A DNA stretch of 64,000 bases from the NCBI RefSeq assembly GCF_003334355.1, contig NZ_QOWP01000007.1; one strand, written 5' to 3'. Position 1 is the first letter of the stretch. Each line of letters begins with the position of its first letter. Shown here in pieces: positions 27,442 through 38,251 of this stretch. Below the pieces are notes generated by a model. That model had not been told where the DNA came from, ran no database searches, and saw only the letters and a list, made by a program, of their open reading frames with translations. Source of the stretch: Escherichia coli. GTDB lineage: Bacteria; Pseudomonadota; Gammaproteobacteria; Enterobacterales; Enterobacteriaceae. A program made the position numbers and the translations under genes.

Positions 27442-28480
27442 ATGCAAGGCACAAAGTCGCGCGATGTTTGGCGGATTCGATGCCCAGCTCAATCAACTCC
27501 ATTACCTGGATTGCCTGGCTTGCCGGAACCGGATTTTCACCATCGCCATTTAACGCATCACGAATAGCCGCATAGTAAGCCGGATAATTCCCAGGCACCG
27601 TCAACAGCGTTTCTTCGACACGTTCCTCACCTTCCACGCGGGTAAGTACGCCATCACGCATATCGTAGCCCCAGTCTTCCTGCGGTAGACGCTCGCCATT
27701 TTTCAGACGTTCTTCCTGTGGATCGAGGCCATATTTCACATAACTGCCTCGGGATCCATGCACGATATACCGTGCTGACTCAGCGGCTGCCAGCATGGTA
27801 CCGTGTAAAATGACTCGCCGCTGTGGATAGGACAAGATGGCGTGGAAATAATCGGTCGACTGCGCTCCGGGCCGTAACTGTGCCAAATCTACCGTCATGC
27901 TGACCGGTAAACCAAAAAGCGTAATGGCCTGATCAAGAAGATGTGGTGCTAAATCGTACCAGATACCGCTGCCTGGGCCGCCCTGTTCACGCCAACGATC
28001 GCGCACCTGCGGACGGAAGCGGTCAAAATGAGACTCAAAGTAAGCAACTTCACCCAGCACGCCTTCCGCGAGTAAACCTTTTAGCGTCAAGAAATCGCTA
28101 TCCCAGCGACGGTTATGGAATACAGACAGCACACGCCCCAGGCTTTTTGCCAGCGCATCCAGCTCTCGCGCTTGTGACAGTGTCACGGTAAAGGGTTTAT
28201 CAACGACCACATGTTTACCCGCCTCAAGCGCCGCTTTGGCTAACGGGAAATGGGTATCGTTGGGTGTAGGAATGACAATCAGGTCTATGTTGGGATCGTT
28301 AAACAGATGCTTCGGCTCAGAGACAACCGTAACCGTTGGCCAGTCGGCTTTTACTTTTGTTTCATCACTGCTGGAGATTACCGCCAGTTCCAGCCCGGGC
28401 GTGCCCGCAATCAGGGGCGCATGGAAGGTTTTGCTCGCATAACCATACCCAATCAACCCAACACGGATGTTGTCGCTCAT
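27440..28480 (-). CDS. ydgJ: Gfo/Idh/MocA-family NAD(P)-dependent oxidoreductase
   Basis: ORF track 27440..28519; recognised start MSDNIRVGLIGYGYASKTFH is 13 codons in, giving 346 aa. Confidence 0.9.
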   Translation of the reverse strand: MSDNIRVGLIGYGYASKTFHAPLIAGTPGLELAVISSSDETKVKADWPTVTVVSEPKHLFNDPNIDLIVIPTPNDTHFPLAKAALEAGKHVVVDKPFTVTLSQARELDALAKSLGRVLSVFHNRRWDSDFLTLKGLLAEGVLGEVAYFESHFDRFRPQVRDRWREQGGPGSGIWYDLAPHLLDQAITLFGLPVSMTVDLAQLRPGAQSTDYFHAILSYPQRRVILHGTMLAAAESARYIVHGSRGSYVKYGLDPQEERLKNGERLPQEDWGYDMRDGVLTRVEGEERVEETLLTVPGNYPAYYAAIRDALNGDGENPVPASQAIQVMELIELGIESAKHRATLCLA

Positions 28481-35503: not shown

Positions 35504-36138
35504 TGAATAAAGCAAAACGCCTGGAGATCCTCACTCGCCTGCGTGAGAACAATCCTCATCCCACCACCGAGCTTAATTTCAGTTCGCCTTTTGAATTGCT
35601 GATTGCCGTACTGCTTTCCGCTCAGGCGACCGATGTCAGTGTTAATAAGGCGACGGCGAAACTCTACCCGGTGGCGAATACGCCTGCAGCGATGCTTGAA
35701 CTGGGCGTTGAAGGGGTGAAAACCTATATCAAAACGATTGGGCTTTATAACAGCAAAGCAGAAAATATCATCAAAACCTGCCGTATCTTGCTGGAGCAGC
35801 ATAATGGCGAGGTTCCGGAAGATCGTGCTGCGCTTGAAGCCCTGCCCGGCGTAGGTCGTAAAACAGCCAACGTCGTATTAAACACTGCATTCGGCTGGCC
35901 GACTATTGCTGTCGACACGCACATTTTCCGCGTTTGTAATCGTACTCAATTTGCGCCGGGGAAAAACGTCGAACAGGTAGAAGAAAAGCTACTGAAAGTG
36001 GTTCCGGCAGAGTTTAAAGTCGACTGCCACCATTGGTTGATCCTGCACGGGCGTTATACCTGCATTGCCCGCAAGCCCCGCTGTGGCTCTTGTATTATTG
36101 AAGATCTTTGTGAATACAAAGAGAAAGTTGACATCTGA
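35503..36138 (+). CDS. nth: endonuclease III (DNA glycosylase/AP lyase, 4Fe-4S)
   Basis: ORF track 211 aa; C-terminal Cys cluster CIARKPRCGSC; start overlaps the rsxE stop by 1 nt. Confidence 0.96.
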   Translation: MNKAKRLEILTRLRENNPHPTTELNFSSPFELLIAVLLSAQATDVSVNKATAKLYPVANTPAAMLELGVEGVKTYIKTIGLYNSKAENIIKTCRILLEQHNGEVPEDRAALEALPGVGRKTANVVLNTAFGWPTIAVDTHIFRVCNRTQFAPGKNVEQVEEKLLKVVPAEFKVDCHHWLILHGRYTCIARKPRCGSCIIEDLCEYKEKVDI

Positions 36139-36144
36139 AGAAAA

Positions 36145-36175
36145 GGGGTAACACCGATTACCCCATTGATAACCT
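36145..36175 (+). terminator. putative terminator of the rsx-nth operon
   Basis: Hairpin ggggtaa-caccgat-tacccc immediately after the nth stop, followed by a moderately T-rich stretch. Confidence 0.45.
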
Positions 36176-36748
36176 TTCTTTATCCTCTTTTAAAACATCT
36201 TTTTAACGTCAATGATGCCATTGCTTAGCGTTATCATCAGGTAATCCGTTTGCGGATAACCAAAAATGCAGGTTAATTGTTTTTTTAATAGCGAAATTTT
36301 CTATTCATTCGTGATCAAGATCACGATGCTGTCGCAATGTAAAAACATTGCAAGAATCAGGTTAAAATCATTTAAATTTACACACGCAACAAATATTGAC
36401 CTACAAAACATTACACTGGCTATTTTTCAGAAACTGGACTATCTCACTAGTAAAAACGCTAAATAGCAGAACATATCGCCGTTAAGCCATCCCCCCCCTC
36501 TCAGTGCAGTGAAAAAATCTGCCGTTACGTTTTTTGAAAAATTTAACGCTGGATAACATTTCCCGGAATGGTTGAATTCCCCGCCTCAGTTATATGTAAC
36601 AGATTATTACAAAGGACTTGTCTGAAAGTGCAAGATAGTGAACATTACCTGCCGTTTCCCCTCCCACTATAACAATTGCGCGTATGTTTTTTATACATAA
36701 CGCGAGAAAGCACCCCCGTTAATATGGGATGTAAAAAAAGAGGTAAAA

Positions 36749-38251
36749 GTGTCCACTGCAAACCAAAAACCAACTGAAAGCGTCAGTTTGAACGCTTTCA
36801 AACAACCGAAGGCGTTCTATCTCATCTTCTCGATTGAGTTATGGGAACGTTTTGGTTATTACGGCCTACAAGGAATTATGGCTGTTTACCTGGTTAAACA
36901 ACTGGGTATGTCTGAAGCGGATTCAATCACCCTTTTCTCTTCCTTTAGTGCCCTGGTTTATGGTCTGGTCGCTATCGGCGGCTGGTTAGGTGACAAGGTA
37001 CTGGGTACTAAACGCGTAATTATGCTCGGCGCTATTGTGCTGGCGATTGGTTATGCTCTGGTTGCCTGGTCTGGTCACGACGCCGGTATCGTTTATATGG
37101 GTATGGCGGCTATTGCGGTCGGTAACGGCCTGTTTAAAGCTAACCCGTCTTCTCTGCTTTCTACATGCTATGAGAAAAACGACCCGCGTCTGGACGGTGC
37201 ATTCACCATGTACTACATGTCCGTCAACATCGGCTCTTTCTTCTCTATGATTGCTACGCCGTGGCTGGCCGCGAAATACGGCTGGAGTGTTGCGTTTGCG
37301 TTGAGCGTTGTAGGCCTGCTGATCACTATCGTTAACTTCGCCTTCTGCCAACGCTGGGTTAAACAGTACGGTTCAAAACCAGACTTCGAGCCTATCAACT
37401 ACCGTAACCTGCTGCTGACCATTATTGGTGTTGTGGCACTGATCGCTATCGCCACCTGGCTGCTGCACAATCAGGAAGTTGCGCGTATGGCGCTGGGCGT
37501 TGTTGCCTTCGGTATCGTGGTTATCTTCGGTAAAGAAGCCTTCGCGATGAAAGGTGCTGCGCGTCGTAAAATGATCGTTGCCTTCATCCTGATGCTCGAA
37601 GCCATTATCTTCTTCGTGCTGTACAGCCAGATGCCAACGTCACTGAACTTCTTTGCGATTCGTAACGTTGAGCACTCCATTCTGGGTCTGGCCGTAGAAC
37701 CTGAGCAGTATCAGGCACTGAACCCGTTCTGGATCATCATCGGTAGTCCGATTCTGGCCGCTATCTATAACAAGATGGGCGATACCCTGCCGATGCCAAC
37801 CAAGTTTGCAATCGGCATGGTGATGTGTTCTGGTGCGTTCCTGATTCTGCCGCTGGGTGCGAAATTCGCGTCTGACGCTGGTATCGTGTCTGTAAGCTGG
37901 CTGGTCGCAAGCTATGGCCTGCAGAGCATCGGGGAACTGATGATCTCTGGTCTGGGTCTGGCAATGGTTGCTCAACTCGTTCCGCAGCGTCTGATGGGCT
38001 TCATTATGGGTAGCTGGTTCCTGACCACTGCCGGTGCAAACCTGATTGGTGGTTATGTTGCGGGTATGATGGCTGTGCCGGATAACGTTACCGATCCGCT
38101 GATGTCACTGGAAGTCTATGGTCGCGTATTCTTGCAGATTGGTGTCGCTACTGCCGTTATTGCAGTACTGATGCTGCTGACCGCGCCGAAACTGCACCGC
38201 ATGACGCAGGATGACGCTGCAGACAAAGCGGCGAAAGCAGCCGTAGCGTAA
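36749..38251 (+). CDS. dtpA: proton-dependent di/tripeptide permease (POT family)
   Basis: ORF track 500 aa; apparent GTG start preceded by the RBS aaagagg; matches DtpA (TppB/YdgR). Confidence 0.95.

Follow-up and report, generated by a model that had tools for sequence, protein, structure and literature searches.

The 610 bp that separate nth from dtpA in this Escherichia coli DNA (analysed as a window of 64,000 nucleotides, which is the whole stretch considered here) probably constitute the cis-regulatory region of dtpA together with the 3' end of nth, with a distal array of protein-binding sites that modulates a single promoter. The OmpR-dependent core promoter of tppB/dtpA is already known. 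What is new is descriptive: out to -381 the upstream DNA is AT-rich and invariant in length, and it has motifs, a CRP-type box among them, that are conserved across the Enterobacteriaceae and into the Erwiniaceae. Taken as a whole, the gap is an elaborate yet ordinary cis-regulatory region, another complex enterobacterial promoter region. Its parts, listed from nth towards dtpA with negative offsets counted from the transcription start site (TSS), are:

36145 to 36164, no strand assigned: GC-rich hairpin GGGGTAA-N6-TTACCCC just 3' of nth (inverted-repeat and terminator scans, alignment).
36165 to 36268, no strand assigned: length-variable spacer without conservation, including ATCCG-TTTG-CGGAT (alignment).
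36269 to 36286 and 36294 to 36305, no strand assigned: blocks A1 (CAGGTTAATnnTTTTTTT) and A2 (AAAATTTCTAT), -383 to -347, with a conservation of 90% or more over 73 sequences.
36307 to 36328, no strand assigned: CRP-type box ATTCGTGATCAAGATCACGATG, core GTGA-N6-TCAC at 36311-36324, centre at 36317.5 (about -334.5), holding both GATC sites.
36334 to 36351, no strand assigned: palindrome GCAATGTAAAAACATTGC (GCAATGT-AAAA-ACATTGC), Escherichia-specific.
36422 to 36448 and 36464 to 36480, no strand assigned: blocks B1 (ATTTTTCAGA..TGGnCTATATCACTG) and B2 (TAGCAGAACATATCGCC), -230 to -172 (alignment).
36490 to 36521, no strand assigned: GadX ChIP-exo peak (36490-36510, repressor, -151; PMC4918353 supplement, converted from U00096.2) and the adjacent conserved block AGTGAAAAAAtCtG at 36507-36521 (in the alignment AGTGAAAAAA).
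36538 to 36562, no strand assigned: block C (GAAATTTAACGCTGGATAACATTT), -114 to -90, conserved, with two xTAAC half-sites 10 bp apart.
36577 to 36636, plus strand: OmpR operator, published ChIP-exo peak (PMC5438342 supplement), with tandem half-sites TGTAACAGAT/TATTACAAAG at 36595-36614 (-58 to -39).
36618 to 36653, plus strand: core promoter dtpAp, with -35 TTGTCT at 36618-36623, -10 AACATT at 36641-36646 and TSS at about 36651-36653.
36653 to 36748, plus strand: 5'UTR of dtpA, about 96 nt, with a conserved 5' end CCGTTTCCCCTCCCAcTATAACaAT, a hairpin at 36715-36728, the Shine-Dalgarno GAGG at 36740-36743 and the GTG start at 36749.

The open reading frames and the annotation give the gene order rsxG-rsxE-nth, then the gap, then dtpA-gstA. 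The product of dtpA (alternative names tppB and ydgR) is the main proton-coupled importer of di- and tripeptides, and of peptidomimetic drugs, in E. coli. The gap runs from 36139 to 36748, bounded by the TGA of nth (end at 36138) and the GTG of dtpA. A preceding sequence-only reading had described it as AT-rich and far longer than a simple promoter needs. Indeed, its GC content of 37.0% compares with 51.0% over the whole window, and among the 48 intergenic gaps in 50 kb of MG1655 it ranks first in length, the runner-up measuring 390 bp. The sequence differs from that of MG1655 by a single base (window positions convert to NC_000913.3 by adding 1,676,020 and to U00096.2 by adding 1,674,044). 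Of the 5,426 complete E. coli genomes, 5,424 contain it with an identity of 95-100%, and 5,423 retain at least 80% of its length. RefSeq holds no feature inside the gap in MG1655, nor beneath the match in 25 genomes listed of the 5,424.

The TSS of dtpA lies close to the gene, at about 36651-36653, which leaves a 5'UTR of about 96-98 nt, and three lines of evidence agree on this. First, the OmpR ChIP-exo peak (U00096.2 1710621-1710680) has its centre at -46.5 from the TSS (PMC5438342 supplement) and the GadX peak (U00096.2 1710534-54) is tabulated at -151 (PMC4918353 supplement); both offsets imply a TSS within that same range. Second, an experimentally selected promoter-up change from A to T at 36641, described as adjacent to the -10, was reported to raise dtpA mRNA about 23-fold, and promoter-up mutations of dtpA made repeated sweeps in starving cultures (PMC7858067). 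More specifically, the change lies 108 nt before the start codon and turns AACATT into TACATT, by which the consensus T at -12 is restored. Third, a phylogenetic sigma-70 scan, with scores averaged over 34 diverse Enterobacteriaceae, had a single standout on the plus strand, a -10 starting at 36641 with a mean score of 6.9, versus at most 2.6 elsewhere in the gap. A simple promoter scan returned nothing in the gap at its threshold. The -10 hexamer AACATT is invariant in all 74 aligned sequences, and the dtpA promoter is a weak, activator-dependent sigma-70 promoter with an invariant sub-optimal -10. In the available portions of the supplement text of Adams 2021 and Yan 2018 there is no dtpA entry.

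Because the ChIP-exo offsets, the mutation and the scan all place the promoter near the gene, the 5'UTR measures about 97 nt and not several hundred. The sequence-only reading had allowed for a long 5'UTR, a suggestion that is not supported, given the proximal TSS and the lack of conserved leader structure upstream of it. Nor is there support for a riboswitch, the only conserved structure within the UTR being a 5-bp hairpin (36715-36728), one pair of which occurs as GU (19 sequences), GC (6) or AU (6); the fold of the UTR has a z of -0.95.

OmpR activates the dtpA promoter from the tandem half-sites at -58 to -39. These two GTTACA-type half-sites lie 10 bp apart, abut the -35 and are near-invariant across genera. 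The tandem repeat GTAACAgattATTACA (GTAACA/ATTACA) at 36596-36611, with 2 mismatches to the GTTACA-type motif, falls within the ChIP-exo peak; the published OmpR motif is KWWGTTACAT. A fusion carrying -201 to +15 of dtpA (tppB) showed strong OmpR dependence, and excess OmpR represses (PMC5175337); OmpR-dependent expression of dtpA has also been reported in PMC5438342, the ChIP-exo table of which gives a single OmpR peak at dtpA (supplement). The expectation of the sequence-only reading that the gap contains OmpR operator DNA is therefore borne out by the peak, but the operator lies about 280 bp from the palindromes that had been flagged and not at them. Since the fusion from -201 to +15 gives OmpR-dependent expression, basal activity in the laboratory does not require the DNA beyond -201, an observation that speaks against a role for the distal part.

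Further regulators may act upstream of the operator. Binding of YdcI upstream of dtpA has been reported from ChIP-exo. On its minus strand, block C (consensus AAATTTAACGCTGrATAACATTT, 36538-62, from the alignment) matches GTTACA-N4-GTTACA with 3 mismatches, which makes it a candidate second OmpR-type site, and the positions 36400-36415 are a candidate for an additional one.

The distal part of the gap was delimited by comparison between species. We fetched the locus from 80 Enterobacteriaceae species and aligned 74 sequences from more than 20 genera with MAFFT. The gap measures 554-620 bp in 73 of the 80 species. From A1 (36269) to the TSS, 73 of the 74 sequences measure 380±1 bp, whereas the flanks vary (92 to 144 bp from nth to A1, and 58 to 64 bp from the TSS to the UTR hairpin). 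Within this stretch there are about eight conserved blocks, and the distances between them are identical in 72-74 of the 74 sequences, except for that from the CRP-type box to B1, where 67 sequences have 121 bp, 6 have 122 and one has 116. For instance, A1 and A2 are 25 bp apart in 72 of the 74, and the spacings B1-B2 (24 bp), B2-C (76 bp) and C-O1 (54 bp) each hold in all 74. Over the whole interval from A1 to the TSS, 32% of the positions have a conservation of 90% or more and 38% one of 50% or less. We infer that fixed distances and helical faces are required, because the length between the blocks is invariant while the sequence of the spacers drifts. When the conservation profile was subjected to a Fourier test, peaks appeared near 21 and 41 bp, nominal only (p ~0.03, uncorrected). 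The GC content of the module is 32-42% in every genus, versus 49-57% for the surrounding loci, and that of its variable columns alone is about 40%.

The module belongs to dtpA and not to nth. Kosakonia has an additional gene, on the minus strand, inserted after nth, yet the distance of the module from dtpA is unchanged. In the Erwiniaceae Erwinia billingiae and Paramixta the upstream neighbour is not nth but a TetR or a BCCT gene, and one can still recognise, with unchanged offsets, the CRP-type box (degenerate in Erwinia), block C, the -35/-10 region and the elements of the UTR. Since the module is retained in both situations, it goes with dtpA. The conservation profile among Enterobacteriaceae, which the sequence-only reading had named as a check, thus shows strongly conserved blocks between A1 and the TSS. 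That reading had also stated beforehand that a TSS close to dtpA together with no conserved block elsewhere in the gap would count against it; the TSS is indeed proximal, yet several strongly conserved blocks occupy the rest of the gap. The literature that we found on the dtpA promoter covers the proximal ~200 bp and makes no mention of the module from -381 to -200 or of the CRP-type box. Blocks B1 and B2 were also compared by eye with promoters of other sigma factors. As a sigma-54 promoter they were rejected, since they have GG-N11-GC instead of N10 and the motif is absent in E. coli; as a sigma-28 promoter they lack a -35.

One of the palindromes flagged in the gap, GTGATCAAGATCAC at 36311-36324, lies in this module. 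In its full form it reads TCGTGATC-AA-GATCACGA (36309-36326, arms of 8 nt). The gap has only two GATC sites, at 36313 and 36319, and both are inside GTGATC-AA-GATCAC, in agreement with the two Dam sites noted in the sequence-only reading. Both of the palindromes that it listed exist, the second being ATCCGTTTGCGGAT (ATCCG-TTTG-CGGAT) at 36244-36257, but their true coordinates are one base rightward of those it gave.

Judged by its sequence pattern, the GATC palindrome appears to be a CRP-type box to which CRP would bind. Both arms are present in 52 of the 74 Enterobacteriaceae sequences, whereas the central 6 bp vary, a pattern that indicates selection for a dimer site of the CRP family and not for the GATC sites as such. 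Of the latter, the right-hand GATCA is conserved at ~99% and the left-hand one at ~60-80%. The box is found as TGTGATCnnGATCAC in most other genera, a better match to the consensus than the CGTGATC of E. coli. Among the Erwiniaceae, Paramixta keeps both arms and Erwinia billingiae has a degenerate copy, with a degenerate right arm (GTGATCTAAATCGC). The box is absent in some lineages, e.g. Kluyvera and Kosakonia. GTGA-N6-TCAC occurs twice in the 64-kb window.

In comparison with known cAMP-CRP sites (consensus AAATGTGATCTAGATCACATTT), the dtpA box matches GTGATC-NN-GATCAC exactly and shares the two-fold symmetry of the 22-bp site TGTGA-N6-TCACA with its selected arms and free centre. It differs in that the E. 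coli copy has CGTGA and not TGTGA, and in its position, 334.5 bp upstream of the sole supported TSS instead of at -41.5, -61.5 or similar. Classical activating CRP sites are located from -41.5 to about -93. The centre at -334.5 is far outside these positions, which speaks against a role of CRP. The GATC palindrome was also compared with matS, the site of MatP in the Ter macrodomain (GTGACRNYGTCAC, 13 bp with a 5-bp centre); the gap contains no match to it at up to 2 mismatches, and the centre of the dtpA box is 6 bp.

A rival explanation is a second, CRP-dependent promoter (P2) directly downstream of the box, with a TSS near 36359 and a leader of ~390 nt that reads through the known promoter P1, so that the blocks would act partly as RNA. 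We consider this unlikely, though it is the best of the rival explanations. The conservation of the box is in line with it, as is the conserved TGTT at the spot where the -10 of a class II (-41.5) promoter would be; in some genera a -10-like hexamer was read by eye from the alignments at that spot (TAAAAT in Erwinia billingiae, TATGTT in Trabulsiella and Kluyvera). However, the E. coli hexamer there is CATTGC, with 2 of 6 consensus bases, and the sigma-70 scan of the 34 Enterobacteriaceae finds no conserved promoter adjoining the box, nor any on the plus strand besides P1. Moreover, in RNAalifold sliding windows over 34 diverse sequences the consensus energy was zero in every window of 36260-36580 on both strands, and no structure was found upstream of 36580. 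In addition, the strict constraint on length extends to A1 and A2, upstream of the box, which a leader RNA does not explain.

Besides the two palindromes flagged earlier the gap has the inverted repeats GGGGTAA-N6-TTACCCC (36145-36164) and GCAATGT-AAAA-ACATTGC (36334-36351). For arms of at least 7 nt there are 4 matches, being nested registers of 3 distinct repeats, versus 0.59 in dinucleotide shuffles, 1.8% of which reach 4. The palindrome ATCCG-TTTG-CGGAT is probably a chance feature, because it is not conserved, is broken as near as E. albertii, and sits in an unconserved segment (36165-36268) with a conservation of ~10-40%. In the place of the palindrome at 36334-36351, 38 of the 74 sequences have a direct repeat TGTT-N7-TGTT, which resembles the consensus of an ArcA site. 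Salmonella tppB is reportedly induced anaerobically, according to older literature. The ArcA-like reading of the repeat is offered as a lead only.

The hairpin next to nth is the basis of a second rival explanation, namely an Escherichia-specific sRNA of ~150 nt on the minus strand that starts near 36289, ends at the hairpin/T-run 36164-36137 and is convergent with nth. In E. coli the T-run of this hairpin is on the minus strand, giving a terminator-like site with an 8-bp stem followed by TTTTCTTC; such sites occur in the gap on the minus strand only, and there is no intrinsic terminator on the plus strand. The 154-nt RNA folds better than its shuffles (z = -2.1, with 2 of 200 shuffles as good), and a -10-like hexamer GAAAAT lies at 36301-36296, with a genus-averaged minus-strand score of 3.7; this hexamer is outside the top eight minus-strand positions of E. 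coli itself, and a convincing promoter is lacking. Neither MG1655 nor the 25 genomes listed has a RefSeq RNA there, and an Rfam scan of 35900-37000 in E-value mode gave sub-threshold chance matches only, none of them near the gathering score. Moreover, conservation of the segment 36139-36268 does not extend beyond Escherichia, and its T-run and second palindrome are lost already in E. albertii. A GC-rich hairpin follows nth in every genus, with sequences that are unrelated between genera, so that the hairpin is more simply, and probably, the 3' end or terminator hairpin of nth. An sRNA at this site is thus very improbable. The sequence-only reading had proposed that the gap could hold an sRNA, which finds no backing in the Rfam scan, the search for plus-strand terminators or the consensus structures upstream of 36580.

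It is just as hard to believe that the upstream 450 bp are a neutral spacer with palindromes that arose by chance in AT-rich DNA. Two of the palindromes, ATCCG-TTTG-CGGAT and GCAATGT-AAAA-ACATTGC, are indeed not conserved, and the nth-ydgR gap is a routine landing pad that is treated as neutral and in which engineered insertions are tolerated. Nevertheless, the conservation of the positions from A1 to the TSS across more than 20 genera, the confinement of indels to the flanks and the retention of the gap in nearly all E. coli genomes (figures above) are at odds with neutrality.

A small protein encoded in the gap, by the 66-codon frame 36266-36466 or a shorter minus-strand frame, has next to no probability, because the former, although present in E. 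coli, has no Shine-Dalgarno before its ATG (as the sequence-only reading had suspected) and no ATG in the alignment of other genera, a search for open frames of 45 codons or more common to half of the species was negative, and the gap lacks the third-position relaxation of conservation that its nth and dtpA flanks show clearly. The proposal of a small ORF goes with it, and for an sRNA, a small ORF or a long leader there is no support. The distal module would thus be neither transcript nor coding sequence, to judge from its pattern of conservation.

A distal set of protein-binding sites acting on one promoter, the explanation that we prefer, can be compared with several known systems. The tppB promoter of E. 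coli and Salmonella is the same locus, with OmpR bound just upstream of the -35. Goh, Siino & Igo in 2004 and Gibson et al. in 1987 are said to have described tppB as an OmpR-activated gene. The papers that we found on this promoter cover the proximal ~200 bp, whereas the module from -381 to -200 lies beyond. The closest relative in architecture may be ompF, which has the proximal OmpR sites F1-F3 and a distal site F4 at about -380 to -350, connected by an IHF-assisted loop. In ompF and dtpA alike, tandem OmpR sites lie beside a weak -35, low OmpR activates and high OmpR represses, and conserved elements lie similarly far upstream in a long AT-rich region. The difference is that dtpA has a single OmpR peak, that its distal elements would be a CRP-type box and other motifs and not F4, and that a loop at dtpA is a proposal. 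Finally, tppB has been listed among the R1 targets of GcvB, verified in Salmonella (PMC9299463, PMC4474525). GcvB represses mRNAs of peptide and amino-acid transporters such as oppA and dppA. The early codons of dtpA are C/A-rich, and they are conserved even at silent positions. GcvB, however, concerns the 5'UTR and the first codons and not the upstream 500 bp. A scan for R1 duplexes in the 5'UTR and early coding sequence did not discriminate a site, as untranscribed upstream DNA scored better.

In the proximal part, OmpR at -58 to -39 activates the weak sigma-70 promoter, which yields an mRNA with a 5'UTR of ~97 nt. For the distal part the following mechanism is proposed. The ~330 bp further upstream (-381 to about -60) would be an AT-rich array of protein-binding sites in a fixed geometry that modulates dtpAp, composed of the CRP-type box at -334.5, A1/A2, B1/B2, C, the GadX site at about -151 and OmpR-like AACAT half-sites. 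Candidate regulators of the distal part are CRP, OmpR (at C and 36400-15), YdcI and possibly Lrp or ArcA. The bound factors may keep their distances and helical faces by way of a loop or a wrapped nucleoprotein complex, and this complex would bring together signals relating to carbon, acid and the envelope, possibly also to anaerobiosis or leucine. Several observations speak against such an array: the tolerated insertions in the gap, an IS66-family insertion at ~36351 in one natural E. coli strain (1 of 5,424 genomes), the weak periodicity and the loss of the CRP-type box in some lineages.

A stronger form of this proposal, tentative and on balance doubtful, is that the 380-bp module is a single higher-order nucleoprotein switch, in which looping or wrapping brings the CRP-type box and A1/A2 to the OmpR-bound promoter and indels between the blocks are counter-selected. 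Occupancy might then register in the Dam methylation of the two GATC sites; pap and agn43 are epigenetic switches based on Dam methylation of GATC.

The results contain a caution for the many laboratories in which constructs are integrated into the nth-ydgR gap as a "neutral" site. Moreover, the map of the module provides a concrete and testable frame for the way in which peptide uptake could respond jointly to signals of carbon, acid and envelope. If the 380-bp module were indeed a single switch, dtpA would be a natural and deeply conserved case of rigid long-range promoter geometry in the enterobacteria.

Within the nth-dtpA intergenic region (36139-36748), the first ~24 nucleotides of the dtpA mRNA (36652-36675, CCGTTTCCCCTCCCAcTATAACaAT) showed a conservation nearly equal to that of the promoter itself. 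Further downstream, the 5'UTR contains one small conserved structure:

36715-36728, dtpA 5'UTR, 11 nt 5' of the Shine-Dalgarno sequence: small hairpin CCCGU-UAAU-AUGGG

One pair of this hairpin is found as GU in 19 sequences, as GC in 6 and as AU in 6, and double changes were observed at two pairs. The structure could influence translation or mRNA stability. In the protein databases, several DtpA entries of Klebsiella and relatives (P0021, P0022, P0078, P0079 and others) count 553 residues and have an N-terminus that is ~52 residues longer. In these entries the reading frame was apparently stretched back across the 5'UTR by the gene callers.

The intergenic region has six copies of the pentamer AACAT on the + strand and a single one on the minus strand. 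Of the six, four (at 36407, 36470, 36555 and 36641) are located within conserved blocks and share the orientation of the OmpR half-sites. In 32 of the 74 aligned Enterobacteriaceae sequences a perfect TATAAT is present on the minus strand between conserved block C and the OmpR site, at the position equivalent to 36575-36580. The motif is absent from Escherichia, Salmonella and Citrobacter; in the genera that have it, it might constitute a divergent promoter.

In Kosakonia and relatives (loci L053, L055, L069, L070, L074 and L075) a minus-strand ORF of ~145 codons, the product of which looks like a membrane protein, has been inserted directly 3' of nth and accounts for an nth-dtpA distance of ~1175 bp. 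These loci have kept the conserved module upstream of dtpA, with a degenerate CRP-type box, and carry an additional TGTGATAACGCTCACG farther upstream. In E. coli GZ2408C (locus L087) the IS66-family element ISCro1 (tnpA, tnpB and the transposase gene) resides at the equivalent of ~36351, with the promoter on one side of it and blocks A1 and A2 and the CRP-type box on the other. It is the sole IS66-family insertion in this region among 5,424 genomes.

A GC-rich hairpin follows nth in every genus compared, and its sequences are unrelated between genera. In the window (36145-36164) it is associated with a T-run on the minus strand (TTTTCTTC); a promoter/terminator scan of the region yielded no T-run on the + strand of the hairpin.

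Elsewhere in the window, within the ydgJ region, the sequence at 28174-28186 agrees with the matS consensus (GTGACAGTGTCAC) at every position, consistent with the location of the locus in the Ter macrodomain.

Finally, a GcvB R1 duplex scan of the dtpA 5'UTR and early coding sequence did not discriminate the early codons, and untranscribed upstream DNA scored better. The first codons (36749-36775, GTG TCn ACT GCA AAC AAt AAA CCA AC) are C/A-rich and conserved at the silent positions as well. Since tppB (dtpA) is a published target of GcvB (PMC9299463, PMC4474525), these sequence features make the early codons a candidate for base-pairing with region R1 of this sRNA.
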